Source: a virus
Reading direction: 5' to 3' (one strand)
Virus record (IMG/VR): IMGVR_UViG_3300049137_000157
Span: 135,469-199,468 of that record
DNA: 64,000 bases
Position 1 is the first letter of the stretch. Every line of letters starts with the position of its first letter. Below, piece by piece: positions 25,289 through 64,000 of this stretch. Made by a program: the position numbers and the translations under genes. The notes beneath the pieces are model-generated. The model did not search any database. It worked only from the letters and a program-made list of their open reading frames with translations, and had not been told where the DNA came from.

Positions 25289-25459
25289 ATGACCGTTCGT
25301 CTCGCTTCCGGAGAAACCATCACGGTCCGTCCGGATGGTTTGGTCATTTGGCGGCGTAAGCGTTCGGAAGCGCGTAAGAAATTCGCCAATTACGACGCGG
25401 CGTGCGCCGCTATTCAGGGTGCGGCATTCGGCCCGGACGTTCGTTTCGTCTCGCAGTAA
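25289..25459 (+). CDS. hypothetical protein, first gene of the plus-strand array
   Basis: acggaaaggaaaa RBS. Confidence 0.6.
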   Translation: MTVRLASGETITVRPDGLVIWRRKRSEARKKFANYDAACAAIQGAAFGPDVRFVSQ

Positions 25460-25508
25460 TGCAATCGTCGTCGACGCGTACCGACGTTGACGCGGAAAGG
25501 AAAAGATC

Positions 25509-27929
25509 ATGGGTGACATTCTCGCAAGGGCAAGCAAGGGTGCGGGTAAGGGTGCGGAATTTCGTCTCTCCGGCGGACAGGGCACATGGCGCGCCGTTCT
25601 GTCTTTCGACATGAACGGAATCGGTTCCGCTTTGGTGGAAGCGATTACGGCCGAACTTGCCCGGCAGGGTTACGCGGATTTTCGCGTTATCCGGTTCGAC
25701 ATGGAAATTTCGCATCCGTCGTCGGACCCTAAGGCGTGGGCCGTTTCCTTCCGGTTCGCCATTGCGGACACGGAGGGGACCGAATGGGGTCCGTGGCTTC
25801 CGTACACGGTGCACACGGGATCCCGTGGCGACGCTTTGGCGGACGCAATCATCACGTGGACTACGCGAGAAATGAACGGGATCCTTTCTCGCTTTTCCCT
25901 GCCTAAGCCTGGTCGGTGGCTTGACGCGGACGGAAACATGACGGACGTCGACCCTGCGGGAATTCTCGCCCCGGTCGTCGACGCTCCCCCGGCGGACATT
26001 CCGGCGGACCCCGCTCCGGTCGTCCCGGTCAACGCTCCGGCCCCGGTCGTCGACGTTCCGGTGGGATCCCTTTCGGGTGACACGTGGGACGCGCCCGGGA
26101 GTGACGCGGTCCGGATTCTCTCGGTGCTTGCCCCGTCCGGCGAAATGGTTGCGCAGTACGGAAAGGTAGGCGCACGCATTCGGCAGATTGCCAGCAACGA
26201 AAGCGACGCGCCCGGTTGCCGCGCGGCAATCATGCTCGCTTTCGGCATAGAGGAAATGCCGGACGTTTACGTTTCCCTGGGAAGGGTCCGGAAGTCTAAG
26301 GCACGCCCGGTTACGTTGACCGTGGACTACGCCCGGAATTCCCGCGACATGCACACGGTCCGCGTGGACATGGGGGAAGACACGGGAGATGCGGCACTGA
26401 TCGCTCACCGTGCCTTCCGGGCATTCGCCGTGATGTGCGCCAACGGGACCATTGCCAAGATGCTGCGCACGGACGGACCGGGGGAAAAGCTGACTTCCCC
26501 CACGCTCCGGAAGCGTCATCAGGAACAGGCACGGGAAGTCATGGCGGACACGCTTGCCGCATGGGGTGAGTCCCCCGTGGCGCGTCGGGTGATGGACGCC
26601 ACGGAAGCGGCCCGGAAGGCTCTTGTGTCCACGGAGCGCAAGCGCCGGACCGCCCGGAAGGCTGCTACTCCCGAGACTCCCCCGGCGGACGCTCCGGCCG
26701 CACCTAAGGCAACCTCCCCCCGGAAGACTCCGGCCGCTAAGTCGACTCCCCGGAAGTCGACCGCCCGGAAGGGTGCCGTTAAGTCGACCGTACCCACGAG
26801 TGAGGTTTGCGCGTCGACTGGCCTCACGTTCGCCGAAATGCGGGAAGCCACGGGGCGGCATTACGCGAATGGTCAGCCGCTGGCAAAGGAAATGCAGGAA
26901 CTTGCCGCACATGAGGCGGCACGGGAATCCGCTCCGACCCGTAAGCGGACGCGTAAGAATGCGGCCCCGGTCAGCAAGGGCGACGCGGACGCGGTCGTTT
27001 ATGTCAAGTGTGAGGTTAAGCGTGCACACCGGGTCCCCCCGGTGCCGGGGTCGGACGTGCAGGAGAAAAGCAAGTCCCCTAAGTCTCTCTCCCTCTCCGG
27101 TGTGAAGGGGCAGTGTCCGGAATGCCGGGGCATAGTTGACCTTGTGGGCACGTCCGCCGGTAACGCATATCTCGACTCGCATTACGTGGGGGGCGTGAAT
27201 CCTCCGGCCGGTAAGGGACTCAAGTCCCGGACCATTCCGGCGACGGATCACGGTTCGGTCCCTGGGTCCCCCGCAAAGGCTGACAAGCGGCGCGCAAAGG
27301 AAGTCGACGATTTGCGCGCCGTTGAGAACGTCAAGGAACGTGCTCGGATCCAGAAAAAGACTCCGAGCAAGCGCGCGCTTGCCAGTGCGGCGGCGCGGGA
27401 AGTGCAGTCGCGGGAAAAGCTGCTCTCTCCGGACGCGTCGGCAAAGGGTGAAGGTTTGGGGCAGCGTGGTCACGGGTCCGTGGACGGGTCCGCCATGGTG
27501 ACCAGTCACACACTCCCCCCGGTTCAGGTGAAGAACGGGAACGGCACGTGGGCACTTCCGGCGACGCTTTCCCCCGGCATGGACCCTGCCGTTCGTGGCG
27601 AATGGTGCCCCGTGTGCAATGCCGCCAAGCGGGACGCGCACCGGGGCAAGTCTCCGGCGTGGCGTCGACGTCACTCTAAGGAAGTCGCTAAGTGGCACGC
27701 GGTCGAAAACGCGCGTAAGGAAAATGCGCGGAACACGGATGCGGCGCGCGCGGAGCGTATGAACCGGATCGCTGGAAAGTCGGAGCGTAAGCGCGTGTCC
27801 ACGGGTCGCATTCGTGAGGGAGTCATTCCCAAGAGTGAGGCGCGTTCGGAGGAATTCGCCACGCTGGATGACGCTTTGGCGGGAACGGATTGCATCCGTC
27901 GGACGTCTGGCGACGGCCGGAAGGTATGA
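25509..27929 (+). CDS. 806-aa basic protein with Lys/Ala/Pro S/TPRK repeats and Cys/His clusters
   Basis: cggaaaggaaaa RBS; KATSPRKTPAAKSTPRKSTARK; CPEC..H, WCPVC. Confidence 0.8.
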   Translation: MGDILARASKGAGKGAEFRLSGGQGTWRAVLSFDMNGIGSALVEAITAELARQGYADFRVIRFDMEISHPSSDPKAWAVSFRFAIADTEGTEWGPWLPYTVHTGSRGDALADAIITWTTREMNGILSRFSLPKPGRWLDADGNMTDVDPAGILAPVVDAPPADIPADPAPVVPVNAPAPVVDVPVGSLSGDTWDAPGSDAVRILSVLAPSGEMVAQYGKVGARIRQIASNESDAPGCRAAIMLAFGIEEMPDVYVSLGRVRKSKARPVTLTVDYARNSRDMHTVRVDMGEDTGDAALIAHRAFRAFAVMCANGTIAKMLRTDGPGEKLTSPTLRKRHQEQAREVMADTLAAWGESPVARRVMDATEAARKALVSTERKRRTARKAATPETPPADAPAAPKATSPRKTPAAKSTPRKSTARKGAVKSTVPTSEVCASTGLTFAEMREATGRHYANGQPLAKEMQELAAHEAARESAPTRKRTRKNAAPVSKGDADAVVYVKCEVKRAHRVPPVPGSDVQEKSKSPKSLSLSGVKGQCPECRGIVDLVGTSAGNAYLDSHYVGGVNPPAGKGLKSRTIPATDHGSVPGSPAKADKRRAKEVDDLRAVENVKERARIQKKTPSKRALASAAAREVQSREKLLSPDASAKGEGLGQRGHGSVDGSAMVTSHTLPPVQVKNGNGTWALPATLSPGMDPAVRGEWCPVCNAAKRDAHRGKSPAWRRRHSKEVAKWHAVENARKENARNTDAARAERMNRIAGKSERKRVSTGRIREGVIPKSEARSEEFATLDDALAGTDCIRRTSGDGRKV

Positions 27930-27947
27930 CGTCGACCTAGGTCGACG
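27930..27947. promoter_or_regulatory. 18-bp perfect palindrome CGTCGACCTAGGTCGACG (operator variant)
   Basis: Directly after stop of the 806-aa gene. Confidence 0.55.
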
Positions 27948-28020
27948 CGGCACAGAAATGCTTTACCGGGTCCCGTTCATTCCGGCGGGACCCGGTCCGG
28001 AAAGGTGAGAGGAAAAGATC

Positions 28021-28356
28021 ATGACCACTTTCAGTGACCGTGTGCGGGAAGTCGTCCGGGACACGGCCGGAGCGATCGGCGCGGTACTGGACGTCACGCC
28101 TGGCCCGGTCGTCGACATGCCGCGCGGTCCGCGCGTCACGCTCCGACTGCCGGACGGGGGACGCGTGAACGTGTGCGGCGTGGTCGACCGCCACGGGGAC
28201 CCGGTCGACGTCGTCCGCGCGTACGTGTTCGGCCCGCCTCGCGTCGACGACAACGGGCGTAAGTGGGAGCGGCTGGTGCCGGATTACCGGTGCGACGCGG
28301 TGGGACCGGACGCTATCGCGGACGCGTTCCGCTCCGTGCTGGTGCGGAACGTCTGA
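28021..28356 (+). CDS. hypothetical protein
   Basis: Purine-rich RBS, high GC3. Confidence 0.7.
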   Translation: MTTFSDRVREVVRDTAGAIGAVLDVTPGPVVDMPRGPRVTLRLPDGGRVNVCGVVDRHGDPVDVVRAYVFGPPRVDDNGRKWERLVPDYRCDAVGPDAIADAFRSVLVRNV

Positions 28357-28453
28357 CACGCCCCGCGTGATCGTGATCGGTCCCCCGCCGGGGGAGGGTT
28401 CCCGCCCGGGGGACCGGTCACGGCTGCACGGTGCAGTCACGGAAAGAGGAACC

Positions 28454-28840
28454 ATGATCATCAACAAGTCTCACGAGGATGCCGGTTACGGAGCGGCCGT
28501 GATGGCGGCTGCCGCCACGGTCGCCGGGATCATCGCCGCCACGTTCGACGGATGTCCGGCGGGGGTGCGGGCGGCCCTGCCGGACCGGGACGCGGAGTGG
28601 CACGCAGACGTCTACGTCGGCCCGTACACGGTCCGGGTGATCGGCGCGCCGGACACGTCGACGACCGTGGCGGAGTCGGTGGAGATTCACGTTCTGTGGT
28701 CGGACACCGGCCGTCCCGCCACGTGCGGCCCTACGGGGACGGACGCAAACACGGACGCGGGGGAGTTCTGCACGTGGCTCGCCTACACGGACGGAATGGA
28801 CATTGTCGTCCCTCCCCCGGCGGGTCGCCTGTTCGTCTGA
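28454..28840 (+). CDS. hypothetical protein
   Basis: acggaaagagg RBS. Confidence 0.65.
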   Translation: MIINKSHEDAGYGAAVMAAAATVAGIIAATFDGCPAGVRAALPDRDAEWHADVYVGPYTVRVIGAPDTSTTVAESVEIHVLWSDTGRPATCGPTGTDANTDAGEFCTWLAYTDGMDIVVPPPAGRLFV

Positions 28841-28928
28841 CGCTTTCGTGCGGGCGGGGCGGTGTTTCCGTCGACGCGGGAATGCCGCCCGGTCCGCATG
28901 GTGCGGGCCGACGGAAAGGAGCAAGGAA

Positions 28929-29189
28929 ATGGGCAGGAGTGGCAGGGGAATTCCGGGCACGGTCACGGTCCGTCTGGCGACGCCGGACGTGCGGGCCGTG
29001 ACGTTCTCCGATCGGGGGACCGTGTACACGGAAAACCGTGACGGGAGCGTGAACCGGGAGGCGTACGGGAACCCCGTGGACCCGGTGCACGTCGACCCGG
29101 TCCGTGCGGCGGCTCCGCTCATCCGGGAAGCAATCCGGAACGGTGTGTTCGCCGGAGTCGGTACGTGGTTCGAGAGCGGATCCCGCTAA
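28929..29189 (+). CDS. hypothetical protein
   Basis: acggaaaggag RBS. Confidence 0.65.
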   Translation: MGRSGRGIPGTVTVRLATPDVRAVTFSDRGTVYTENRDGSVNREAYGNPVDPVHVDPVRAAAPLIREAIRNGVFAGVGTWFESGSR

Positions 29190-29229
29190 CCGGGTCGCGT
29201 AGCGGCATGGGGTAAGGCACAATCAGCAA

Positions 29230-29241
29230 CGGCCTAGGCCG
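29230..29241. promoter_or_regulatory. CGGCCTAGGCCG operator candidate
   Basis: Intergenic 12-bp palindrome. Confidence 0.55.
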
Positions 29242-29261
29242 AACGGAAAGGAAAAGGGATC

Positions 29262-29510
29262 ATGGCGGTATCGCTGGCAAAGATCACGGGTGGAGACGCG
29301 GCGAAGATCATCCAGGCGGCGCGGGAAGTCGGCGCGAGTCGCGGTGAGTCGCACGGCATCCACGCCGCGACGTTCGGTGGCGTGGTGGAGCCGGACACCC
29401 CGGACATGCCCGCATCGTTCGCCACCATGGCGGGCGGGACGGACGTCCGCCGGGTGTACGGGGACGCGTACCGGGAGGCGGCCCGGAAGGCGTACCGAGC
29501 GAACTTCTGA
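29262..29510 (+). CDS. hypothetical protein
   Basis: acggaaagg RBS. Confidence 0.7.
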   Translation: MAVSLAKITGGDAAKIIQAAREVGASRGESHGIHAATFGGVVEPDTPDMPASFATMAGGTDVRRVYGDAYREAARKAYRANF

Positions 29511-29618
29511 TCACGGCGCGGCATGGGCGGGACCGGCGACCGATAACCGGGATCCGGTCCCGTCCATGCCGTTCTGTCATCAGAGAACGGGACGGCAACA
29601 CGGAGAGGAAAAGATCAC

Positions 29619-30008
29619 ATGAACAACGCTCGCATGGCTTTCGCGGGAATCCTGGCAGGGCTGGTCATCCTGTTCACGCCGACGGCGGCGGGAGCGGTCG
29701 CGCCGGTCAAGTCGGCCGGTAAGGCGGTCGCGTCCGTTTGCCTCACCGGCTCCCGCGCCGATGCGGAGTACCGCCGCAAGTGCATGCGCTACGGGACCCG
29801 CGCCGACGGGGTCCGCATGTGGTTCGACATGGGCCGACGGGAGCGCGTCACGGTGTGCGCGTCGGCGCGCCGCATGGGGCTGCGGACGGCGGTCCGGGAG
29901 TCCGTCTACGACGTCGCGTACGACACGTTCCACAACCACAACACGGTCATCGGCGGCGCGATCCTCGCGGCGCGTTTCGACTGCCGGTACATGATCCGGC
30001 GCGGCTGA
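29619..30008 (+). CDS. secreted protein
   Basis: Signal peptide ending TPTAAGA; four Cys. Confidence 0.7.
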   Translation: MNNARMAFAGILAGLVILFTPTAAGAVAPVKSAGKAVASVCLTGSRADAEYRRKCMRYGTRADGVRMWFDMGRRERVTVCASARRMGLRTAVRESVYDVAYDTFHNHNTVIGGAILAARFDCRYMIRRG

Positions 30009-30031
30009 CATTCACGGAAAGGGGATCACGG

Positions 30032-30199
30032 ATGAAGATCCGCAAGGGCTGGAAACTCATTTGGGAGAACGGCACGGAGTGGCTGGGGGACTGCCCGGTA
30101 TGGGCGGCTCAGCTCCTCCCGCCGGGCGCGCGGATCGTTCCGATTCGGCTGATGGGGCCGCGCCGGGGTCCGTGCAACTGTCCCGGCGGACACTCGTAA
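30032..30199 (+). CDS. hypothetical protein
   Basis: acggaaagggg RBS. Confidence 0.55.
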   Translation: MKIRKGWKLIWENGTEWLGDCPVWAAQLLPPGARIVPIRLMGPRRGPCNCPGGHS

Positions 30200-30301
30200 T
30201 TCCGTGATCCGGGAGCGTGGATAGGGTCGCCCGCCCATGGCGGGCGGCCCGGTCGACGCGGCGGAATTCGGGAGCGCGTCACATCGGAAAGGAAAAGAAT
30301 C

Positions 30302-30727
30302 GTGGAGCACATGGTTATCGGCAAGTTCCGGATGCCTACCGAGCGCGTGGACATTCGGGAGCTGGTGCGCGGGGACCTGATCGTCCGGGAGATCGACGGC
30401 GGACACCTGATCACCGTGGCGGAAACCTCGGCGTTCACGTACGACGGTGTCCGGCGGCTGATTCACGACAACACGGAGGCCCGTGTGTGGGCCGACGACG
30501 ACGGCATGGTGCGCGTGGCGCGCGCCCCCTTCCACACTCAGCGCGTCGGGAGGACGTCCATTCGGGGCGCGTGGCACCTGCTGGACGCCGGGAGCGATGA
30601 CGGCATGTGCCCTCCGTCGCGCGGCAAGATCACGGACCGCTGGGAGTCCGGAACGGCGGTCTCCGGGATCACGTGCCGGGGATGCGTCGCAACGTTCGGG
30701 ATCTTTTCCCGGACGCTGGTCGGCTGA
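30302..30727 (+). CDS. hypothetical protein with C-terminal H..C...CxxC
   Basis: cggaaagg RBS. Confidence 0.7.
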   Translation: MEHMVIGKFRMPTERVDIRELVRGDLIVREIDGGHLITVAETSAFTYDGVRRLIHDNTEARVWADDDGMVRVARAPFHTQRVGRTSIRGAWHLLDAGSDDGMCPPSRGKITDRWESGTAVSGITCRGCVATFGIFSRTLVG

Positions 30728-30748
30728 CGACAGGAAGGGGATAGCGGC

Positions 30749-30991
30749 ATGTGGGGAATCGAGACATCCCAGCGTTTCGGGCCGAATCGGATCGGCGAGA
30801 TCCTGGCGGCCGATCAATTGGGGGAGTTCGTCGGAATGCGCCCTCGGATCACGACGGAATTGCGTGTGACCGGCGTAACGGAGCGGGCATTCGTCGGGTG
30901 GACGATCGTCGGGACGACCGGGTGGGCGGACGTCACGGAGCATGGCACCGTGACCGGCGTCGGAGTGTGGGTGCCGATCCTGCACCCGTGA
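30749..30991 (+). CDS. hypothetical protein
   Basis: RBS, codon bias. Confidence 0.65.
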   Translation: MWGIETSQRFGPNRIGEILAADQLGEFVGMRPRITTELRVTGVTERAFVGWTIVGTTGWADVTEHGTVTGVGVWVPILHP

Positions 30992-31060
30992 CGTGACGGC
31001 ATTCCGGGAGCGTCTTTCATCCCTCCTGGCCAATAGGCGCACGGGACGAAAGGGGACGGA

Positions 31061-31192
31061 ATGGAATGCGAAGGATGCTACGGGCCGGATGGTGAAGTTG
31101 TATTCGACCCGTACGACGTCGATGTGTTGGGGATCCTCACGAAGCGCGTGCTGTGCCCGGCGTGTTCGGGAACGCGGGCGGAGGACATTTGA
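31061..31192 (+). CDS. 43-aa CxxC...CxxC peptide (not in ORF track)
   Basis: MECEGCYGPDG...VLCPACSGTRAEDI; gaaagggg RBS. Confidence 0.55.
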   Translation: MECEGCYGPDGEVVFDPYDVDVLGILTKRVLCPACSGTRAEDI

Positions 31193-31202
31193 CCGGGCGG
31201 GT

Positions 31203-31242
31203 TTCGGGAGTGCGCGGGGCGGGAGTTCCGTGCACTCCAGTG
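31203..31242 (+). ncRNA. TTC-hairpin-(A)GTG intergenic element, representative copy
   Basis: ttcgggagtgcgcgg...ccgtgcactccagtg; near-identical copy at 31834-31869. Confidence 0.55.
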
Positions 31243-31276
31243 GTCCGCATGGGTCGGACGGAATCGACGGAAGGGA

Positions 31277-31813
31277 ATGGGAGACATGGCGCTTTTCACG
31301 GAGTACCCGGGTCGGGAGCGGAATCCTCTCGGCGGCCAGGAGTCGGCGGAGTGGGACGCGTGGATCCGGGAGGCGGCGCGCATGGCGTCGGAGGCTCGGG
31401 AGGCGTTGCGGGACATGCCGTTGACGCACGACAACGGCAAGGTCAACGTCCTGCGATACATGTCCGTCAACACGGAGCGGGAACACTCCGGCGTTCTGGC
31501 GGAATGGGAGTCCGTTCAGCGTCGGGACCGGGCGGGTGACACGGGGGCGCGGGATCGGTTCGAAGTGGGCCTGATCTCCCGGGTGATGTCGGCGCACGGC
31601 GCGGCGGAGTTCGCCCGGCAGCAGGGGTACGGCCCGGACGACACGACGGCGGGCGGTCGGCCCATGGCGGACGTGTCCGGGGAGTACATGCGGGCGTGCA
31701 CGATCCTCGCCCGGTACGTGGGAGTCGACCCGATGACCGTGGTCACGTGTGACGGGGACCAGGCGAGGCTGTCGGCGCTCCGGCCGTTCGGGACGGACCG
31801 CACGGACGGCTGA
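31277..31813 (+). CDS. hypothetical protein
   Basis: acggaaggg RBS. Confidence 0.7.
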   Translation: MGDMALFTEYPGRERNPLGGQESAEWDAWIREAARMASEAREALRDMPLTHDNGKVNVLRYMSVNTEREHSGVLAEWESVQRRDRAGDTGARDRFEVGLISRVMSAHGAAEFARQQGYGPDDTTAGGRPMADVSGEYMRACTILARYVGVDPMTVVTCDGDQARLSALRPFGTDRTDG

Positions 31814-31903
31814 CATCTGCCGGAGCGTCGGGTTTCGGGAGTGCGCGGCTTTGGTCGTGCATTCCAGTGATCCGAAAGGTTCGGACGGAAAGGGGCAAGG
31901 GAA

Positions 31904-32437
31904 ATGCGGGTATTCGGGTATGAGGTGCGCACGCGTAACGTCCGGGAGTCGCGGACGGACGTGCACCGGCTGGAATTCAGCGCGCCGGACCACCAGACGG
32001 CCCAGGCGTGGCTGACCGGGTGGGCGGGAGTGACCGGCCGGGAGATCATCGACTGGGAGCTGATCGCGGACGGCTGCACCTTCCGGGAGCAAGCGGCGCG
32101 GGACCTGTCCGCCATGGCGGAGCGCATCGCGCCCGCCTACAACGCCGCCATGGTGGAGCCGGTGCACTCCGGGGAGTACATCGTCGGGAAGATGTGGCTC
32201 CCGAACGGGTGGGGCGTGTCGGTTTCCTCCAAGATCAGCGAGAACCACTGGGTGCGGTCGGAGTTCGTCACGATCCGGGAGGACCCCACGGACCGGCACG
32301 GATTCGCGATCGACTTCCCGCTTCCGGAGTTCCCGGTCGCGGGGGGTGCGGCCCCGGAGAATCCGGAGGCGGACGGGGAGATCCGGCGCGTACTGGACCT
32401 GCTGTCGAAGCTGCCCCCGGTGTTCCCGGAGGCGTGA
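31904..32437 (+). CDS. hypothetical protein
   Basis: acggaaagggg RBS. Confidence 0.7.
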   Translation: MRVFGYEVRTRNVRESRTDVHRLEFSAPDHQTAQAWLTGWAGVTGREIIDWELIADGCTFREQAARDLSAMAERIAPAYNAAMVEPVHSGEYIVGKMWLPNGWGVSVSSKISENHWVRSEFVTIREDPTDRHGFAIDFPLPEFPVAGGAAPENPEADGEIRRVLDLLSKLPPVFPEA

Positions 32438-57129: not shown

Positions 57130-57131
57130 GA

Positions 57132-57160: not shown

Positions 57161-57187
57161 GGCCCCCGGAACGTTCCGGGGGCCACT
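57158..57187. repeat. 30-bp perfect palindrome
   Basis: agtggcccccggaacgttccgggggccact. Confidence 0.9.
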
Positions 57188-57224
57188 GGTCGTTTCGGAA
57201 CTAGAGGAAAAGAGGGAGGGTGTG

Positions 57225-57467
57225 ATGAGCGGGGTCTACAATCTCACGGCCCAAGACTTCGAGGCTGCCACTCGGGATCTCCGACATGCGGCAGACCGAC
57301 TGACTCACGGAGAACGGCCGACGGGACTCGCCGAAGAGCTGGCTGCCCTGATGGCTGAGGTGTTCCATCGATGGGCCCGCATGGGTCACTACAACAGCCA
57401 CATCCTGGCACGGGACGGCGGCCCGCAGACCGTGGCGCTCGCCCGACACATCCTCAGCCTGCCCTGA
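57225..57467 (+). CDS. hypothetical protein
   Basis: gagggaggg RBS. Confidence 0.6.
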   Translation: MSGVYNLTAQDFEAATRDLRHAADRLTHGERPTGLAEELAALMAEVFHRWARMGHYNSHILARDGGPQTVALARHILSLP

Positions 57468-57488
57468 AGGACGGAAAGGACAAGAAAC

Positions 57489-57797
57489 GTGAGCAAGCCC
57501 AAGGTTGACCGCTTCGACATCATGAGCGGAGACAAGCATCCCCGCCGCCTGTGCTCCTTCCCCGACACCGAGATCGGCACGGAGCGCGCCCGACAGTACA
57601 TCCAGGAGTACAACGACGGCCTCATGAAGCGCCTGGACCTCACTTCCGAGGACCTCACGCGAACCGGCCTCCGGGACTACGACCTGCTCCGCCGGATCGA
57701 CACCTACGTGGAGCATCTGGCGTATCCGCAGCCCGTCCATCCCGTCGAGGTCGTCAAGGACGAGGACCCGATGCCCGAGATCCAGTACTCGTTCTGA
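57489..57797 (+). CDS. hypothetical protein, paralog of next gene
   Basis: SFPDTEIGTERARQY...DEDPMP. Confidence 0.7.
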   Translation: MSKPKVDRFDIMSGDKHPRRLCSFPDTEIGTERARQYIQEYNDGLMKRLDLTSEDLTRTGLRDYDLLRRIDTYVEHLAYPQPVHPVEVVKDEDPMPEIQYSF

Positions 57798-57813
57798 CCC
57801 CGAGAGGGACAAC

Positions 57814-58161
57814 ATGTTCAGCATCGAGAAGCTGCGGCAGGAAGCCAAGTTCGTGGACGTCACCACATGGAGCGACGAGATCGAATACGCCCTCTTCCGG
57901 TTCCCGAACGACGAGATCGGTCATGCTCGCGCCGTCGAGTACCGGAACGCCTACAACGCCTCCCTGAAGACGGCGATGGGGATCACGGACGACGACCTGG
58001 AACTCCAGTCTCCCGACTGGAACCAGCGACCTGAGGAGTACGACCAGGCGATGCACGCCGAGCTGTACCGCCTCCGAACGGCGGGGCTTTCGTACTACGT
58101 GGGACCCCAGGTCATCGGCAACGACGACCCGATGCCCACCGACTACCCGCACGACCACTGA
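57814..58161 (+). CDS. hypothetical protein, paralog of previous gene
   Basis: RFPNDEIGHARAVEY...NDDPMP. Confidence 0.7.
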   Translation: MFSIEKLRQEAKFVDVTTWSDEIEYALFRFPNDEIGHARAVEYRNAYNASLKTAMGITDDDLELQSPDWNQRPEEYDQAMHAELYRLRTAGLSYYVGPQVIGNDDPMPTDYPHDH

Positions 58162-58172
58162 GGGAGAACCGC

Positions 58173-58481
58173 ATGTCCGAGCTGACTCGAAAGACCACGC
58201 ACTACATCGTCCACCACACGGTCGCGGACCCTGGTCCGAACTCCACCTACGGCACGTCGGCCCCGTACTCCGGGGAGCGTGCCCTGGAGCGAGCGATCAA
58301 GGCGGCCCACGTCGAGATCTCATCCCGTCGTCGGGCCTTCGTCACCGCCCGCGACAAGAACTCGGCCATCCTTGCCGTCATCCCGGTCGTTGACTACCCG
58401 GTGGCTCAAGAGACCCACGTTCCCCTGCACGCGCAGGACGCCATCACCGGCCTCTTCGAGGCCATGGACTGGACGGTCTGA
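58173..58481 (+). CDS. hypothetical protein
   Basis: gagggag RBS. Confidence 0.7.
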   Translation: MSELTRKTTHYIVHHTVADPGPNSTYGTSAPYSGERALERAIKAAHVEISSRRRAFVTARDKNSAILAVIPVVDYPVAQETHVPLHAQDAITGLFEAMDWTV

Positions 58482-58491
58482 CACCCACGAA

Positions 58492-58553
58492 CCGGCACGG
58501 CCGAAACCCCTTCGGGGGTCGGCGGTATGGGGCCGCCCTGATGAGTCCGTCGG
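58492..58553 (+). ncRNA. type II hammerhead ribozyme
   Basis: GAAA 58503-06, stem III CCCC-UUCG-GGGG, GUC cut after 58520, stem I GGCGGU/GCCGCC, CUGAUGA 58538-44, imperfect stem II. Confidence 0.8.
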
Positions 58554-58568
58554 AGAAGGAGAGAAAAC

Positions 58569-59057
58569 GTGAAGAAGATCAAGGTTCGCCCGATGACGGG
58601 CGAGGAACTGCTGAGCCTCGGCGAGAGCGACTGGACCTACGTTCCGGATCACGGTCGCCGGGACGCCCTCGTGCCCGCCCGACTGCACCAAGGACTCCTT
58701 CCCGGCGAGGTGAAGGCCCTGGAGAAGTACATCGCCGACGGCGCGATCGTTCCTTCGTTCGGCATCCTCACTCTGTACGGCTCCCTGTACTCGGCACGGG
58801 CGACGGAGTTCTTCGTCGAGGATCCGGAGGGCGAGGAGCGCCCGGTGATCGAGACGGTCGGCACGCAGGTGTCCATGGCGATCTACGTCCCGGGCATGGA
58901 GGGGCCTGACGTGCTGGAGCGGATGCGCAAGGCGCTGCGGGCCGAGTTCGGCGCGGGTCTGCTCCAGCTCCGCCAGGAGACACACCGGCCGGTGCCGGAG
59001 ACGGGACTTCCTCCGGTGCTCGGTGTACCGAACGGGCACATGCCGGAACTCATCTGA
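58569..59057 (+). CDS. hypothetical protein
   Basis: aaggagag RBS; flanked by the two ribozymes. Confidence 0.7.
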   Translation: MKKIKVRPMTGEELLSLGESDWTYVPDHGRRDALVPARLHQGLLPGEVKALEKYIADGAIVPSFGILTLYGSLYSARATEFFVEDPEGEERPVIETVGTQVSMAIYVPGMEGPDVLERMRKALRAEFGAGLLQLRQETHRPVPETGLPPVLGVPNGHMPELI

Positions 59058-59058
59058 C

Positions 59059-59123
59059 CTGACCCGAGGCCGAAACCCCTTCGGGGGTCGCAGCGTGAGG
59101 CGCTGCCTGACGATGGCCGTCAG
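59059..59123 (+). ncRNA. type II hammerhead ribozyme
   Basis: CUGAC-(CCGA bulge)-GGCC-GAAA, CCCC-UUCG-GGGG, GUC cut after 59089, stem I GCAGCG/CGCUGC, CUGACGA-U-GGCC-GUCAG. Confidence 0.88.
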
Positions 59124-59143
59124 TAAACGGAAAGGAGACAGGG

Positions 59144-59389
59144 ATGTCGGAGATCAGGGTCGAGTACAAGGGGCTGGTGTACGGTCCGATCGATCTGACG
59201 GACGCGGACGGCGGCACGGTCTACATCGAGCACAAGAGCGTGGCCGGGATGCGGACCATCGTCACCCTGGAGGTCCGGGACGACGGCGGACTCGACATTC
59301 GCGAAGGCATCACCCCGGACGACGGTCACAGCACGCTCCTCGGCAGCATCAACCGCTACGGGATGAAGCTGGAGGGGAAGACGGAATGA
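59144..59389 (+). CDS. hypothetical protein
   Basis: acggaaaggaga RBS. Confidence 0.7.
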   Translation: MSEIRVEYKGLVYGPIDLTDADGGTVYIEHKSVAGMRTIVTLEVRDDGGLDIREGITPDDGHSTLLGSINRYGMKLEGKTE

Positions 59390-59697
59390 ACGGGCAGGAG
59401 TCGATCCAGAACGAGGCCGAAACCGCGAGTGGCTATCTGAATAGCGTGCTCCGCTATATGCAGAACGGGGGCAAGCTGACCAGTATCGAAGCCACTGCCG
59501 CCGAAACGCTGCGCCTGCACGCCGAAGAACTGGGACACGGCCTGGAGAGCCCCGTGAATGCCAGTGTGGGGGCGTCGATACTTCGTGCCGCCGTAGAACA
59601 CCTCCGTCTTCGCCACAACAACCTGGCCGCCGATGAGGTCTTCCGTGACCTGATGGACATGGCCACCAAGCTCGGACAGGAAGGTCGTAGCAAGTGA
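59386..59697 (+). CDS. hypothetical protein
   Basis: ATGA overlap. Confidence 0.6.
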   Translation: MNGQESIQNEAETASGYLNSVLRYMQNGGKLTSIEATAAETLRLHAEELGHGLESPVNASVGASILRAAVEHLRLRHNNLAADEVFRDLMDMATKLGQEGRSK

Positions 59698-60179
59698 CGG
59701 CGAACGAACAGATGCAGTTGATGGAGAACCTCCTCGCCGGGTTGTACACCGGCATGTACGAGGCCATGGCCCCTCGGGAGCGTTGGGCCGAGGGCGACGA
59801 GGGCCTTCAGTGGACGGTGAACGAGGTTGCCCGGCTCGCAGGTGCCTTCGGTCATGACGACCTGCTGGCAGTCGCGAAGCACCTGAAGGGGACTTCGTCA
59901 TCCGTGACGATCAACTCCCTGGAGACCTGGCTGGAGGCCCACTACTTCGGCGCTCACGCGACCTCCGGGGAGGCCCTGAAGGACTTCGCCAAGCGCATGC
60001 CGGACACCGCGATCGGTTCGCTGTACGCCGAGATGGACGAGATGGGGGAGGCCGAGGACTTCGAGTGGGAGACGATGGCCAAGTCGCCCATCCCGAAGGC
60101 GATCGGCCTCTACTTCGTCACCCTCGACAACGAGACCGACGACGTCTTCCTGTTCTGGGACAAGCAGCGGGCCTCGTGA
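59694..60179 (+). CDS. ArdA-like acidic protein, paralog of 49252
   Basis: WLEAHYFG..SGEALKDFA...LYAEMD...FEWE...VFLFWD aligns with 49252 C-terminus. Confidence 0.55.
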   Translation: MTANEQMQLMENLLAGLYTGMYEAMAPRERWAEGDEGLQWTVNEVARLAGAFGHDDLLAVAKHLKGTSSSVTINSLETWLEAHYFGAHATSGEALKDFAKRMPDTAIGSLYAEMDEMGEAEDFEWETMAKSPIPKAIGLYFVTLDNETDDVFLFWDKQRAS

Positions 60180-60448
60180 ACAGACACATCCCGTTCCGTG
60201 AGGGTCGAAAGCTCCGCATAGACGGTGTCACCTGGTACTGCCAGTCTCCGGGGTCCCTCTGGGAGACCCGGCCGGAAGATGACCAGGAGTGTGGCTTCCA
60301 GCTCTTCTGGACGGACGGTCCGGCCTGGTGGCTGATCTGGCCCGAGGGCGGCGAGAGCCGCATGTCCGAGATCGGCCTCAAGATGGCCATGAAGACGGCT
60401 GCTCCGTACGTGCGCGGAGAACTTGGTCCGGGGGAGTTCCCGGACTGA
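60176..60448 (+). CDS. hypothetical protein
   Basis: GTGA overlap. Confidence 0.6.
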   Translation: MNRHIPFREGRKLRIDGVTWYCQSPGSLWETRPEDDQECGFQLFWTDGPAWWLIWPEGGESRMSEIGLKMAMKTAAPYVRGELGPGEFPD

Positions 60449-60482
60449 CCGACCAAGCAAAGCGACGAAAGGGAGAAGAAAC

Positions 60483-61112
60483 GTGAACGGCAAGACATCC
60501 ACGACCGGCTTGGTGCTGGAGACGACGGACGAGGAGATCGAAGGGCGCGTGGTCTTCCGGTTCGAGCTACCGGAGGGGGTGGTCCAGGACGGCGGCCCGA
60601 GCGGGGTGGCCTTCGTGAAGAACGGCGACAGTGCCGTCTTCACCTACGGGTGGAAGGGACGGCCTTGGCTCGCCCGCAGCATCCGCATGTTGTCTCCCAG
60701 CGTCCACTCGTTCCTGACGACCGCCAAGACGCTGATGGACCTGAACTTCGACGCGCTCAGCATCGCCGAGATGGACCGCCTGAAGCGTCAGCTCGAAGAC
60801 CTTCGGGTGGAGGCGCTGGATTGGGCGTCCTTCTGGAATGATCACCTCGGGTACCGGCTCTCGTTCCAGCGAGGTGACCGGGTGCAGATCGACGGCGAGG
60901 ACCTGATCGAACCGTCTGTGCCGGTCGCCAAGGAGGGCTATCTCCACGGCGTCAACGTGACGGACAAGGGTGTCGTGTACACGATCCACACGGAGGGGCG
61001 CGGCATGCAGGCCGCTCTGCGTGGAGCCTCGCTCAAGCGGCTGTCCGACAACGGCCATCGGGAGTGCAAGTTCGAGGCCGAGCCGTGCACCGTCTGCGGC
61101 TTCGGCGGCTGA
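60483..61112 (+). CDS. multi-domain protein with SH3/KOW-like domain
   Basis: SFQRGDRVQI..G...VVYTI; C-terminal H.EC...C..C. Confidence 0.7.
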   Translation: MNGKTSTTGLVLETTDEEIEGRVVFRFELPEGVVQDGGPSGVAFVKNGDSAVFTYGWKGRPWLARSIRMLSPSVHSFLTTAKTLMDLNFDALSIAEMDRLKRQLEDLRVEALDWASFWNDHLGYRLSFQRGDRVQIDGEDLIEPSVPVAKEGYLHGVNVTDKGVVYTIHTEGRGMQAALRGASLKRLSDNGHRECKFEAEPCTVCGFGG

Positions 61113-61131
61113 GACAACGAGAGGAACGGCG

Positions 61132-61344
61132 ATGAAGTACACACTCCGAGATGCCAGCGGAAACGTTCTGGGATCCTTCGAGGTCCCCCCGGGATCCGAC
61201 CAGATGATCACCCTGTACAGCGAAGGAGAGGGCGACCCGGACAGCGAAGCTCTCGTGAGCATCCACACCTTCTGCGACGGCGGCATCTCCGTCTGGGATC
61301 CCTCGGCACCGCCTGAGGCGGACCCCGTGTTCCGCTCGCGTTGA
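61132..61344 (+). CDS. acidic small protein
   Basis: GAGG RBS. Confidence 0.6.
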   Translation: MKYTLRDASGNVLGSFEVPPGSDQMITLYSEGEGDPDSEALVSIHTFCDGGISVWDPSAPPEADPVFRSR

Positions 61345-61464
61345 TCGAGCAGGCCCCCTGGCGTCCGGGCTTCGGTCCGGACGTCGGAGAGTCGGCTTGA
61401 CCGGCGAAAAGGATATCCGAGACATTCTTCGGAAAAGAGGACAGGAAAAGAAAAGCACGGGAGG

Positions 61465-61878
61465 GTGATCATGCTGGACTGGTGGACCGTCCCGGGTGGC
61501 AGCGTGGGCATTTCGAACTTGGACTTCAAGGTCGAGATCTACAGAAAAGACTCTGCATCCCATGGTGATCACCCGGAGTTCTGCACCGAAGCCGACCTGG
61601 CCTTGTACCGGATGGGTGCTTGGTGCCATGTCTTCGTTCGAGTGATCCCCGTCGACATGGAGCTGACGGACTACCCGCACTGCATGGCACAGGGTGAGGA
61701 GGTCTGGGGCGAGATGGCGGAGGGGGTTCGAAGTGACCGTCTGGAGATCATGCCCACGGTAGCCTCCCTGGCCTGCACCGCCGCCTTGACCCTGCGACGC
61801 TGCGGGTTCCCGGTCGCCTTCGATCCGGGAAGCGAGTTTGCGAATTTCTTCGCAGGATTTCGCGATCTAGCTGCATGA
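61465..61878 (+). CDS. hypothetical protein
   Basis: gggaggg RBS. Confidence 0.55.
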   Translation: MIMLDWWTVPGGSVGISNLDFKVEIYRKDSASHGDHPEFCTEADLALYRMGAWCHVFVRVIPVDMELTDYPHCMAQGEEVWGEMAEGVRSDRLEIMPTVASLACTAALTLRRCGFPVAFDPGSEFANFFAGFRDLAA

Positions 61879-61932
61879 TGGTGTGAGGGCACCAACGGAA
61901 GCGGCAACGTAGACTCCGGGAAAGGAAAAGGT

Positions 61933-62145
61933 ATGACACAGGGCGAGAAGAAGAGTCCGGCGGAAATTTTGGCCGGTCTCGTGAAGAACCAGGTGTCCTG
62001 GGAGCGAGACATGGGACGCAAGGACTCTTACGCGGAGCGAGTGGCTGTCGGCATTGCCGTCGACTTCGCCAACGCCATGCTGGAGCAGGATCCGAGCTTC
62101 GACAAGCGAGCGTTCCTTCAGTCCTGCAAGCCTGACAACTACTGA
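61933..62145 (+). CDS. conserved small phage protein
   Basis: FANAMLEQDPSFDKRAFLQSC (NP.FD..RF..AC-like). Confidence 0.7.
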   Translation: MTQGEKKSPAEILAGLVKNQVSWERDMGRKDSYAERVAVGIAVDFANAMLEQDPSFDKRAFLQSCKPDNY

Positions 62146-62165
62146 CACGGAAGAGGAGAAGAAGC

Positions 62166-62618
62166 GTGAACGAGAACGTGGCAGTTCCGCTGCATGTATG
62201 GCAGGACGCCTTCGAGACGGCCGAGACTCTCGACTGGGACCCGGAGGCGGCCCAGTGGGAGGACGGTCCGGTCTGCAACTTCATCGCTCTCCAGTACAAG
62301 CACCACCCCAAGGTCAACCGTGAGCCGAACATCCTGGAGGGTGCCCTGCGAGCCCTTGAGGAGGTGGAGTTCGAGCAGGTGACTCCGGCTCTCTTCCGAA
62401 CCGTTCTCGACGGCTACGTGAAGTCGACGACCGCCGATTTCGAGGCTCTCGTCAAGGTGCACCTGGCCAGTCAGTTCGACCTGCACGTCAGCCTCCCGGG
62501 CAGTCCGACCGAGGACGACTACCGCGAGTGGTATCTACACAAGGTCGCCGACGACGACGTGGCCTTCGGCGAGAACAGCTCGGGTCAGGCCCACTGGTTC
62601 AAGCGGCACGGATGGTGA
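62166..62618 (+). CDS. acidic protein, weakly ArdA-like
   Basis: FRTVLDGY...DFEALVK...DYREWY...AHWF. Confidence 0.6.
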   Translation: MNENVAVPLHVWQDAFETAETLDWDPEAAQWEDGPVCNFIALQYKHHPKVNREPNILEGALRALEEVEFEQVTPALFRTVLDGYVKSTTADFEALVKVHLASQFDLHVSLPGSPTEDDYREWYLHKVADDDVAFGENSSGQAHWFKRHGW

Positions 62619-62956
62619 CGGGCATGGAGACCGGCTTCCTCATGCCCGGCGGTACCGTCCGCCGATGGGCTTTCGACTTCCACGAGAACGACACCCCGCA
62701 CGAGCCGCAGTTCCTCCGCACGCTGAGCGACGACAGCCGCGAGCTGATGACCTTCGAGGCGTTCTTGCACCTGGCCTCCGGCATCCACGAGGGCAAGGTC
62801 CGTCAGCAGGAGGCGTGGCTGCACCTGTACATGTTCACCCCAGATCACCGGCTGGTGCCGGTGACGCTGGACTTTCGGGAACAGGACGGCATCCCTCAGG
62901 GGTGGGTCCGGGACAGCCCCAAGGACTCCCCGATCTGGTCGTTCGACATTCTGTAG
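62612..62956 (+). CDS. hypothetical protein
   Basis: Overlap, codon bias. Confidence 0.6.
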   Translation: MVTGMETGFLMPGGTVRRWAFDFHENDTPHEPQFLRTLSDDSRELMTFEAFLHLASGIHEGKVRQQEAWLHLYMFTPDHRLVPVTLDFREQDGIPQGWVRDSPKDSPIWSFDIL

Positions 62957-62982
62957 AAGCCTGCATCGAGAAAGGGAACAAA

Positions 62983-63219
62983 GTGGCCACGTACTTCATC
63001 GCCGTTCAGCACGGAGAGCCCCGAGAGGTTCCCGAAGGTGTCGTCGAGGCGTACCTGGAGGATCTCGCGACCGAAGGGACGGAGCCGCCCTGGGACCACC
63101 TGCTGATCATGACTTCCGAGATGCAGTACCCGAAGCCGTGCCAACTGGTGCTCAAGGGGAACCCCCGAGCCTTCCGGTTTTACGTCGGGAACCTCTCCAT
63201 GCACGAGGTGGAGGTCTGA
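62983..63219 (+). CDS. hypothetical protein
   Basis: gaaaggg RBS. Confidence 0.6.
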   Translation: MATYFIAVQHGEPREVPEGVVEAYLEDLATEGTEPPWDHLLIMTSEMQYPKPCQLVLKGNPRAFRFYVGNLSMHEVEV

Positions 63220-63220
63220 C

Positions 63221-63487
63221 GTGCCGTCGATCTACTCCGGATCGGAAGCGGCCCGGCGACTGGACTGGTACCTCCAGGCGGGCCACGGCAAGCCGGTACG
63301 TACGAACGCCACGGACGGCGTCAGGCGCATCCTCACGTCCATGATCCGGGCCCTCGACGACACCGGGGACACCGAGGTCATAGAGGGGCGTCTGGAGGAG
63401 GTTCTCGGCATCCTCGGGGCCGATCCCACAATGAAGATCGTTCTCGCATGGGGCGAAAAGGGCCTGGTCACCATGTGGCGAGGCTGA
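63221..63487 (+). CDS. hypothetical protein
   Basis: GGAGG RBS. Confidence 0.65.
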   Translation: MPSIYSGSEAARRLDWYLQAGHGKPVRTNATDGVRRILTSMIRALDDTGDTEVIEGRLEEVLGILGADPTMKIVLAWGEKGLVTMWRG

Positions 63488-63533
63488 CAACAGAAGCGGC
63501 CGAGAAGGTCGCTCACCGGAAAGGAGAAGGAAC

Positions 63534-63773
63534 TTGATCTACTGGGTTCAGTACAAAGACCAGACGGTCAGCCCGGACTCGGACGAGGCCCTGCGGAACC
63601 TGCTGCACATTCTGTACGCGGCCACTCTGCCGGATGTTGACGCGGCCACCTCCGAGGCGCGCGCCCAGGAGGCACTGGAGTTGATCCAGCGTCGGGAGGA
63701 CCCCGAGGACGGCGTGGACATCACGTTGCCGGACGGCTACATCGTGAACATCAGCGGAGAGGGTGGGTTCTGA
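63534..63773 (+). CDS. acidic small protein
   Basis: ccggaaaggagaagg RBS, TTG start. Confidence 0.6.
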   Translation: MIYWVQYKDQTVSPDSDEALRNLLHILYAATLPDVDAATSEARAQEALELIQRREDPEDGVDITLPDGYIVNISGEGGF

Positions 63774-64000
63774 TGGCCAATAGCTACTACACGATCGAGG
63801 CGGGCAAGAACGTCTCGCACACCTTCGAGAACGACCCGACGAACCTCGCCTTCTACCTCCTCGGCCTGCTGGAGGGGGACGGGCGGCCGTCCAACGACGC
63901 CCTGGCTTTGGCGAACAGCGTCGTCAACCATCTGCGTAGCAGGGGTCGCTACCCGGACGGTCGGGTGACCGTTCTGAGTGACGGCCGAGAGGTCCGCGTC
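63773..64000 (+). CDS. hypothetical protein, runs off the window
   Basis: TGATG overlap, open to edge. Confidence 0.55.
   Translation, partial: MANSYYTIEAGKNVSHTFENDPTNLAFYLLGLLEGDGRPSNDALALANSVVNHLRSRGRYPDGRVTVLSDGREVRV

Follow-up and report, generated by a model that had tools for sequence, protein, structure and literature searches.

The stretch analyzed here (the window, 64,000 nucleotides (nt), positions 135,469 to 199,468 of IMG/VR record IMGVR_UViG_3300049137_000157) is the final 64 kb of a single viral contig of 199,468 bp, and from position 25289 onward it carries a long array of small genes on the plus strand. We conclude that the window holds about three quarters of one co-directional accessory-gene block of approximately 131 genes and 52 kb. 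With moderate confidence, we explain it as a block whose long transcripts would be punctuated by two kinds of intergenic RNA element, hairpins flanked by UUC and GUG and putative hammerhead ribozymes, and which would have an early role in host takeover or counter-defence.

Extent of the array and its counterparts in cluster BM phages

Since a list of open reading frames (ORFs) is uninformative at 65% G+C (408 ORFs of at least 40 amino acids (aa) overlap positions 20000-64000), a codon-based gene caller was trained, using codon log-odds from 48 long ORFs with high G+C at third codon positions. It called 95 consecutive genes on the plus strand (25509-63773) and none on the minus strand. Two extra small ORFs (25289-25459 and 31061-31192), each preceded by a good ribosome-binding site, raise the total to 97 genes and 96 junctions. 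An earlier note on this DNA had described a co-directional plus-strand array of about 39 kb with about 85 genes, mostly 50-200 aa long. Array, strand and gene size are confirmed (89 of 95 proteins lie in that range, with a median of 109 aa), but the count had to be revised to 97 genes in 25289-64000.

The contig is classed as complete with direct terminal repeats in IMG/VR. A 127-bp repeat is common to both contig ends and one gene spans the join, so the start of the contig is arbitrary. The array goes on over this join with 35 further small plus-strand genes (genome 35-13527), and the wrap-around part is collinear with the array of phage Frankenweenie, where the shared genes run from 197 kb down to 150 kb. 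The full unit, therefore, comprises approximately 131 genes in 52 kb. Its genes within the window are as follows.

25289..25459, plus strand: first array gene, 56 aa; ORF with purine-rich ribosome-binding site; similar small first genes in Frankenweenie and Kradal; no Pfam match
25509..27929, plus strand: second array gene, a large basic protein of 806 aa with an isoelectric point (pI) of 9.8; gene call
28021..64000, plus strand: remaining 95 small genes of the window array; gene calls; the last gene crosses the contig end
31061..31192, plus strand: 43-aa ORF with two CxxC pairs, zinc-ribbon-like; found by a scan of gaps for ORFs, missed by the gene caller

Compared with its counterparts in Frankenweenie and Kradal, the 806-aa protein is 30-32% identical over 420-461 aa. 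It has 26 representative clusters among 1.84 billion proteins, its conserved part being residues 630-775, and no match in Pfam or PHROGs.

In the left 24 kb of the window, terminase, portal and protease genes match the Streptomyces phages Kradal, EhyElimayoE, Quantum, Frankenweenie, JustBecause, Kela and Satis with 76-78% identity over 9-17% of the query; when the array region was compared with the same phages at the nucleotide level, one 123-nt piece only was found. The matched phages belong to cluster BM, siphoviruses with prolate heads and genomes of 184-200 kb, which have defined ends and terminal repeats of approximately 1 kb (PMC6687918, PMC10652959). The source is a 199-kb Streptomyces phage distantly related to cluster BM. 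Two annotated members carry comparable arrays.

Frankenweenie (OQ921725), genes 255-366 (n=112), all on the minus strand: three named functions; gene-free right end of 2.7 kb
Kradal (MK620894), genes 236-337 (n=102), all on the minus strand: one named function and a phosphatase note on another gene; gene-free right end of 2.5 kb

Both arrays run inward from the right end, beginning with a gene of 57-59 aa (gene 366 in Frankenweenie, gene 337 in Kradal) and a second one of 513-587 aa. The synteny comparison with related phages that the earlier note had asked for was made, and the same right-end block is present in annotated BM phages with the shared genes collinear. The array as such is already visible in the public BM annotation. 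Neither of the two BM announcements describes the array or its RNA elements (PMC6687918, PMC10652959), and the Frankenweenie and Kradal records annotate none of the latter.

Hairpins and hammerheads in the junctions

Across the 96 junctions, 20 gene pairs overlap or abut, 30 are separated by 1-30 nt, 15 by 31-60 nt and 31 by longer spacers. A recurring element besides the ribosome-binding site was found in 23 of the 96. Spacers of at least 40 nt account for 39 junctions: two hold a hammerhead, ten a strict and four a loose flanked hairpin, three a second class of hairpin, three an exact and two a variant operator-like palindrome (one of the operators shares its spacer with a loose hairpin), and 16 are unclassified. 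The junctions had been described as reusing four parts, namely an operator-linked promoter, a flanked hairpin, a hammerhead and a purine-rich start sequence. All four exist, but only the purine-rich start is general, the others being found at a minority of junctions. A GGAG, GAGG or AGGA core precedes 112 of the 130 array genes and 161 of 216 others, and purines make up 0.76 and 0.67 of the upstream sequence, respectively, although these figures have to be read in light of the gene caller itself having used a purine-rich signal to choose starts.

For the flanked hairpins, a descriptor was applied which consists of TTC, 0-2 nt, a stem of at least 12 pairs with at most one mismatch, a loop, 0-2 nt and GTG. 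It matches ten times on the plus strand of the array, in each case between genes; elsewhere there are no plus-strand matches and one minus-strand match, and 20 shuffles gave a mean of 0.5. When the threshold is set at nine pairs, eight copies are found on the array strand of Frankenweenie and eight on that of Kradal.

28845..49219, plus strand: zone of flanked hairpins by the descriptor, confined to the proximal 24 kb of the array
28845-28903, 31203-31242, 31834-31869, 34323-34359 and 35807-35844, plus strand: strict flanked hairpins 1-5, by the descriptor
39304-39340, 42455-42499, 45262-45298, 46330-46365 and 49179-49219, plus strand: strict flanked hairpins 6-10, by the descriptor
Spacers at 32438, 32962, 36600 (hairpin at about 36613-36652) and 44214 (hairpin at 44225-44268), plus strand: four loose flanked hairpins

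The core of each hairpin, UUC...GUG (U.G, U.U, C-G and often G.A), is bordered by an outer helix on one side and by a variable stem of 12-16 bp on the inner side. We examined 25 copies, i.e., the ten found here and 15 of the relatives' copies with at least 12 pairs. The sense RNA is more stable than the antisense RNA in all 25 (mean difference 10.3 kcal/mol, Wilcoxon p=6e-8), and G.U pairs number 98 in the sense RNA versus 16, which argues that the structure acts in the transcript and not in the DNA. Positions 4-14 of the inner stem are paired in 21-25 of the 25 copies, a figure which the descriptor partly imposes, and most positions use several pair types (three nearly equal ones at position 6). 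The outer helix lies outside the descriptor and is 75% paired, versus 46% with shuffled partners (maximum 56% in 300 shuffles). Taken as a whole, the helix has a median of 25 pairs (range 22-35 in the 25 copies) and a conserved U.U mismatch. A cmscan of the array region against Rfam gave no match for this hairpin family.

In one account, the ideal substrate of RNase III is a helix of 22 bp, about two turns, in which an internal loop or mismatch is frequent (PMC3867540), and Streptomyces is described as possessing an RNase III, AbsB (PMC2936110). The hairpins form a helix of about two turns with an internal mismatch and, because their length matches two turns, they fit such a substrate. By analogy, we infer that RNase III may cleave them; a binding or stabilizing role or partial attenuation are the alternatives.

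The position of the hairpins bears on a different explanation. Their helix starts 5-21 nt past the previous stop codon (11 nt at 31203, counting the 43-aa ORF) and ends 19-49 nt before the next start codon. This leaves no room for a promoter before the next gene, and strong termination at the hairpins would, therefore, silence the genes downstream. That the flanked hairpins are intrinsic terminators or attenuators without a U tract, which chop the proximal array or grade read-through, appears unlikely to us, although they are G+C-rich, lie on the sense strand and directly follow stop codons, and canonical U-tract terminators are not enriched (11 found versus 8.9+/-3.1 expected in one scan, 13 versus 11.1+/-4.1 in another). 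Ingham et al. in 1995 reportedly found functional terminators without poly-U tails in the early region of the Streptomyces phage phiC31. However, 19-49 nt are too short for a promoter plus leader, and a terminator has no need of the conserved U.G/U.U/C-G core or of a covarying outer helix. Further, what follows the flanked hairpins is GUG and another small hairpin, with no T runs, and farther along the array the same slot is taken by ribozymes of a self-cleaving type.

Very improbable, in our judgment, is an integron-like cassette array in which the hairpins would be attC-like sites, folding as single-stranded DNA and used by an adjacent tyrosine recombinase. Indeed, the genes are co-directional, small, mostly promoterless and parted by hairpins with conserved flanks and variable stems, and a tyrosine integrase (PF00589 with a SAM-like N-terminal domain; genome 14497-15603, minus strand) is encoded just past the distal end of the array. 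Yet this integrase is distal and convergent with the array, not divergent at its start, where the gene-free region lies, and a hairpin is found at only 10-14 of the 96 junctions and not after each cassette. The structure also appears to be selected in the sense RNA, as described above for the 25 copies and their G.U pairs, and Frankenweenie has the hairpins, yet its authors state that their phage has no integrase (PMC10652959). The integrase-bearing relative described here may be temperate or may have acquired the integrase gene.

Hammerheads were searched exhaustively with a descriptor composed of GAAA, a closed stem III, UH, a closed stem I and CUGANGA. Exactly two copies were found in the 199-kb genome, flanking a single gene, and three copies each in the Frankenweenie and Kradal arrays.

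58487..58560 (core 58503-58544), plus strand: hammerhead 1, type II topology, the weaker copy, by the descriptor; predicted cleavage after GUC at 58520
58569..59057, plus strand: 162-aa gene between the two hammerheads; gene call
59057..59129 (core 59072-59113), plus strand: hammerhead 2, type II topology, by the descriptor; predicted cleavage after GUC at 59089

All eight matches in the three phages are intergenic and on the coding strand, and 20 genome shuffles yielded one match. Each copy carries CUGA(U/C)GA, GAAA and GUC (GUA in one copy), with a U inserted between core and stem II in most of them. Around the core, a three-helix type II layout backed by covariation was found, in which loops close stems I and III while stem II is open. 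In the alignment of the eight copies, 86.6% of the cells are paired versus 68.2% in shuffles, a figure partly imposed for stems I and III, and eleven pairs change on both sides. The covariation score is 0.427 versus 0.135 in shuffles (reached by 0 of 500), and slid controls do not exceed 0.114. Both-side changes occur at six of the seven pairs of stem I. Stem II, which lies outside the descriptor, is 81% paired; it is long, broken by a bulge of 4-5 nt and formed by the conserved flanks.

A covariance model (R1) was built from the eight copies. It scores hammerhead 1 with 54.4 bits (E=9e-14) and hammerhead 2 with 80.9 bits (E=6e-22), and it has no other strong match elsewhere in the three complete genomes (next best E=1.4e-3). 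Outside the training set there are 12 matches, ten in five other complete viral genomes (187-260 kb) and two in a metagenome contig of 1.4 kb, L131 (E=3e-14 and 5e-17). The pair in L131 brackets an ORF, and its first hammerhead lies directly 3' of a homolog (51% identity) of the bracketed 162-aa gene. A sequence pattern for this hammerhead subtype is found in 106 stretches of IMG/VR, so we consider it a widespread phage hammerhead. The copy at L131:304-380 has a G in place of an A at core position 6 (CUGGCGA), which may lower its activity.

Judged from the fold, cleavage would give two products, an upstream RNA with the stem III hairpin as its end and a downstream RNA whose first structure is the stem I hairpin, located 48-54 nt ahead of the start codon. 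Type II hammerheads as described by Perreault et al. have a tertiary contact, typically a pseudoknot of loop I with the 3' tail (PMC3088659).

Hammerheads and hairpins occupy the same slot, on the sense strand between a stop codon and the next ribosome-binding site, and their order along the array recurs. In this phage, both hammerheads come after the last flanked hairpin. The Frankenweenie and Kradal arrays likewise have most of their hairpins near the promoter end and hammerheads as their farthest elements, but one Frankenweenie and two Kradal hairpins are placed downstream of the first hammerhead. For the five further genomes, a pattern for one hairpin subtype gave 24 matches versus one with a reversed control, and in each of the five, the hairpins which look clean by eye share the strand of the hammerheads and precede them. 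Since the phages may share ancestry, these eight genomes do not amount to eight independent observations. A more far-reaching reading, which we regard as possible but rather doubtful, is that the UUC...GUG hairpins are a new, uncatalogued class of RNA-processing signal doing the job of hammerheads, within a super-operon of 50 kb and 130 genes with punctuation in two zones. If true, hairpins dependent on a host or phage factor would mark the 24 kb transcribed first and factor-independent ribozymes the rest, and the two zones would differ in message lifetime or timing.

Transcription, gene turnover and the proposed role of the array

Upstream of the array lies a region without called genes.

22267..25288, no strand: gene-free region, a gap of approximately 3.2 kb with a GC content of 0.57-0.59 and pyrimidine-rich tracts

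Long pyrimidine-rich tracts are found at 22500-23600. A repeat of about 60 nt is present five to six times at 23759-24073, with spacings of 58-68 nt, each copy pairing a conserved ATATCCGCAGGTCA word with a palindrome-like TGATCACGA word; these repeats may be packaging, origin or end-binding sites. Repeat families mapped in this region are D1-D5 and D7. Five GTCGACGC words lie within 25118-25477, ahead of array genes one and two, and another is located past the gene of the 806-aa protein (27934-27948). The clustering of this word is local only, as it is not enriched over the whole window (15 versus 9.6+/-3.2 expected). A single blastn run of 20000-26000 against Frankenweenie (E<=1e-3) listed no match. 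By analogy with the relatives, the gene-free region probably holds the physical genome ends and the first promoters.

A 10-bp perfect palindrome, GGCCTAGGCC, recurs in the array as an operator-like site.

29231..29240, 47357-47366 and 57143-57152, no strand: GGCCTAGGCC, exact matches
33034-33043 and 44284-44293, no strand: one-mismatch copies of GGCCTAGGCC, variant matches
27934-27943, no strand: two-mismatch copy of GGCCTAGGCC, by eye

Genome-wide, there are 16 exact sites, nearly all of them intergenic, where fewer than one is expected by our composition estimate. They lie between -35-like and -10-like hexamers or just past the -10-like hexamer, the hexamers having been assigned by eye. Five more sites are in the wrap-around part of the array and six in Frankenweenie. 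The operator-linked promoter that the earlier note had counted among the junction parts is, thus, present as a site, but since GGCCTAGGCC occurs throughout the genome and in Frankenweenie, it is a phage-wide regulatory site rather than a module of the array. A PadR-like regulator encoded in the wrap-around part (genome 1277-1555, plus strand) is a candidate binder of this palindrome.

Further elements on the array strand fall outside the two main families.

37825..37860, plus strand: G+C-rich hairpin followed by TTTT, the only terminator-like site seen on the array strand; by eye, not listed by the consensus scan for five T
40602..40640, 50961-50999 and 61354-61392, plus strand: second hairpin class ending in GAGAGUG (repeat family D6), all three in intergenic spacers

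The GAGAGUG hairpins are spaced 10,359 and 10,393 nt apart. Very stable spacers (-33 to -56 kcal/mol) which fit no family described here were seen at 28357-28453, 29511-29618, 30200-30301, 53897-53991 and 55442-55504. Rfam gave zero matches at the gathering score in the window, and there were no tRNAs; at E<=10, the only ribozyme was a hammerhead below threshold, and the other five matches were chance-level fragments of microRNA, leader and RNase P.

Under the explanation that we favor, the block starts beside the gene-free genome-end region with a tiny gene and a gene for a large basic protein, followed by about 130 unrelated small genes. Host RNA polymerase would transcribe it in a few long units, with some promoters overlapped by the phage-wide GGCCTAGGCC operator. 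On the sense strand, the proximal 24 kb carry helices of approximately 25 bp with the UUC...GUG mismatch core, and the part further downstream carries the type II hammerheads. The hammerheads would cut themselves, giving an upstream RNA with a stem III hairpin end and a downstream RNA with a stem I hairpin and a 5'-OH, and a factor specific for double-stranded RNA, in the simplest case the RNase III of the host, would cut or bind the long hairpins, in keeping with the early transcript of T7. The outcome would be gene-sized or group-sized mRNAs with hairpin-protected ends, and position and analogy suggest that the block would be expressed early, for host takeover or counter-defence. The earlier note had likewise proposed a few long transcripts which are then processed into single mRNAs. 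Co-directional units, few promoter-like sites, the lack of a terminator excess and the sense-strand elements are consistent with processing of long transcripts; a recurring element is present at 23 of the 96 junctions.

Early expression is suggested by a position next to the genome end as in the relatives, by an operon-like build and by analogy with other phages. As in early modules, the array consists of small, mostly unknown genes on one strand at a genome end, the physical ends of this phage being placed by the gene order in its relatives only. In Rhodococcus phage WC1, early genes are described as lying on one arm and being mostly of unknown function (PMC10986025).

Several observations weigh against this explanation. 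The coding strand is G-rich, which by itself favors G.U pairs in the sense RNA, and a better fold in sense was also seen for 29 of 39 spacers of any kind. The descriptors imposed the pairing of stems I and III and of the inner hairpin stem; their pairing percentages are, therefore, partly circular, and independent support comes only from stem II, the outer hairpin helix and the matches outside the training set. The Rfam family Hammerhead_II (RF02276) was not reached at its threshold, as hammerhead 1 scores 22.7 bits versus a gathering score of 37 (E=2.6) and hammerhead 2 is absent from the Rfam matches at E<=10. Stem II of hammerhead 1 is weak, and its active fold (-25.2 kcal/mol) lies 6 kcal/mol above the minimum free energy (MFE) of -31.2 kcal/mol. 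In most copies, a hairpin between CUGACGA and a downstream GUCAG competes with the active fold. A consensus scan for sigma-70-type promoters gave no excess (0 and 2 found versus 1.7 expected), and the promoters named in the array were read by eye. The sequencing runs listed as matching 56500-61500 are three soil-metagenome DNA runs, two of which may be the source of the contig, and no RNA run. Finally, the phage has no RNase III of its own visible to Pfam, and no family for takeover or anti-defence was recognized among its array proteins with Pfam and PHROGs.

For hammerhead 2, the active fold is only 1.2 kcal/mol above the MFE (-30.8 versus -32.0 kcal/mol). The hammerhead fold equals the MFE structure in two of four folded copies, both from relatives and neither of them from this phage. 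In most copies (at 59106-59124 in the window), the core CUGACGA and a downstream GGCCGUCAG can form a hairpin which excludes the active fold, and an upstream CUGAC rivals for the same GUCAG. The competing hairpin could be a folding switch.

Protein databases were searched for hints of function. None of the 95 window array proteins and only one of 131 across the full array, the PadR-like regulator mentioned above, reached a Pfam gathering score; a ProQ-C-like match in the array falls just below the threshold. PHROGs matched 8 of the 95, in each case with a family of unknown function. Outside the array, by comparison, a Pfam family at E<=1e-5 was assigned to 45 of 203 proteins (calls of at least 60 aa, with one 583-aa protein straddling two fetched loci omitted). 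The absence of recognizable replication or structural genes from the array, as stated before, is borne out by both searches. The relatives' arrays have an ADP-ribosyltransferase and a phosphatase annotated, both of which this array lacks. In 5.8 billion sequences, two relatives were found for an array protein that is among the best conserved, and the 202-aa protein at 41429-42037 gave a predicted fold with a predicted local distance difference test (pLDDT) score of 55.7 from a three-row alignment.

The bracketed 162-aa protein has eight homologs at 46-58% identity; relatives of its gene were not found in viral_contigs and on one short contig in metagenome_contigs. Structure prediction with a Foldseek search, a check suggested in the earlier note, was run on this protein. 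The AlphaFold2 model (pLDDT 74.8) is confident for residues 1-95 (pLDDT above 88), the one confident fold, but Foldseek found no match at E<=0.001 in PDB or BFVD, the best BFVD match (0.013) being an uncharacterized Erwinia phage protein, and the ESM Atlas gave no usable match. With VIA-align, the best Z of 6.4 was to Tudor domains, where the stated background is 7-8. Identity as a Tudor or SH3-like barrel was set aside, the resemblance being at background level only.

The array proteins had also been described as strongly acidic and zinc-binding. The acidic bias is real but modest (median pI 5.12 versus 5.66, Mann-Whitney p=1e-4; pI below 4.5 in 29 of 130 array proteins versus 21 of 216 others, p=0.002). 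Zinc-ribbon patterns are not enriched, being found in three of 130 array proteins versus six of 216 others. Among 130 array proteins there is one paralogous pair, so growth of the array by duplication was ruled out. Homologs in Frankenweenie were found for 28 of 130 array genes (approximately 22%) versus 84 of 216 other genes (39%; p=9e-4), but the difference to other small genes is not significant (46 of 161, p=0.18). High turnover is, therefore, a trait of small genes in this phage and not of the array, which, together with the single paralogous pair, weakens the idea of exchangeable cassettes in the earlier note. Junction elements as boundaries of mosaic segments were considered as well, as two hammerhead examples and one hairpin example fit, and this idea was dropped because with 22% of the genes conserved almost any junction is a boundary.

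The same turnover can be read differently, with the array as non-essential cargo which has no shared early program and whose genes would be expressed at various times from many weak promoters, and with the RNA elements as selfish or neutral passengers spread by recombination. Array genes turn over like other small genes, a recurring element is limited to a minority of the junctions, at two syntenic hammerhead junctions the upstream gene is conserved (72-75% amino acid identity) and the downstream gene unrelated, and non-syntenic hammerheads in different phages have nearly identical flanks. We nevertheless hold this to be quite improbable. All eight genomes examined share the overall architecture and the order of the first genes, with hairpins placed upstream and hammerheads reaching farthest downstream. 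The single coding strand, 50 junctions of at most 30 nt and generally strong ribosome-binding sites favor operon-type expression.

Besides the array, the genome encodes a Ro-like TROVE protein and an RNA ligase (PF09414) two genes apart on the minus strand (genome 33753-35399 and 35896-36666), as well as a cold-shock protein and three ProQ-C-like proteins, to which the near-threshold fourth within the array may be added. An RNA polymerase, RtcB and a polynucleotide kinase were not found with Pfam. The TROVE, RNA ligase, cold-shock and ProQ-C proteins could form an RNA-handling toolkit for ribozyme-cut ends. A bolder possibility is that genes between two hammerheads leave the transcript with 5'-OH and cyclic-phosphate ends, on which the phage RNA ligase and the Ro-like protein might then act. 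Outside the array, an ATP-grasp enzyme and a Strep_pep precursor peptide form a graspetide cassette (genome 124823-125920).

Comparison with known systems

Large actinophages give a quarter of their genome to such arrays, with at least 100 tiny genes to be expressed in a balanced way. If the hairpins are processing signals, the BM phages would be tractable, as they are cultured phages with laboratory Streptomyces hosts and an RNase III mutant exists, and they could show how a 50-kb transcript is split into stable units, by a host nuclease in one zone and by ribozymes in another. The elements could be used as parts for insulated multi-gene operons in Streptomyces, and the array is a compact source of unexplored small proteins, only one of 131 belonging to any Pfam family.

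The layout is a variant of arrangements already known in phages. SPO1, T4 and T5 have long runs of small unknown genes at one arm or end which are expressed first, their early expression having been measured. The early block of WC1 is, as far as described, similarly a long run of small unknown genes at one genome arm, but early expression was measured there, and the present array is larger (approximately 131 genes) (PMC10986025). The early precursor RNA of T7, 7 kb long and made by the host polymerase, is reported to carry five RNase III signals (PMC3867540). Like these signals, the flanked hairpins are intergenic, irregular helices of about two turns with an internal mismatch, set along a long co-directional run of genes. 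Unlike in T7, the host is an actinomycete, there are 10-14 sites versus five, and cleavage is a prediction here.

Clustered hammerheads on either side of single genes or short blocks were described from prophages by Perreault et al. (2011), who proposed that long phage transcripts are cut to gene-length mRNAs (PMC3088659). As in their clusters, type II hammerheads stand between co-directional phage genes, and pairs of them bracket one gene (58569-59057 here, gene 249 in Kradal, the ORF in L131). In contrast to the clusters described there, the hammerheads are sparse (2 in 52 kb here, 1-3 per genome in seven relatives), they are found in a group of large Streptomyces phages of lytic type, and the slot is shared with a non-ribozyme hairpin family. 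In the literature searched, with subscription journals outside its scope, no published hammerhead in a Streptomyces phage or actinobacteriophage was found.

The closest counterparts are the arrays of Frankenweenie and Kradal, which agree in position, strand logic, order of the first genes and approximately 22% collinear shared proteins, and have the same hairpin family, hammerheads and GGCCTAGGCC sites. They differ in that the present phage is distant kin, is without their ADP-ribosyltransferase and phosphatase, and has an integrase adjoining the array. Temperate actinophages have dispersed operators, such as the conserved inverted repeats of phiC31 and the stoperators of L5, repeated between genes near promoters. 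GGCCTAGGCC resembles them as a short, conserved site with many intergenic copies near promoters, but differs in being a perfect palindrome of 10 bp, present in 16 exact copies, in a phage whose relatives are described as lytic. Set against all these systems, two things are new here, the UUC...GUG hairpin family itself and the conserved position which it takes with respect to the hammerheads within a very large array.

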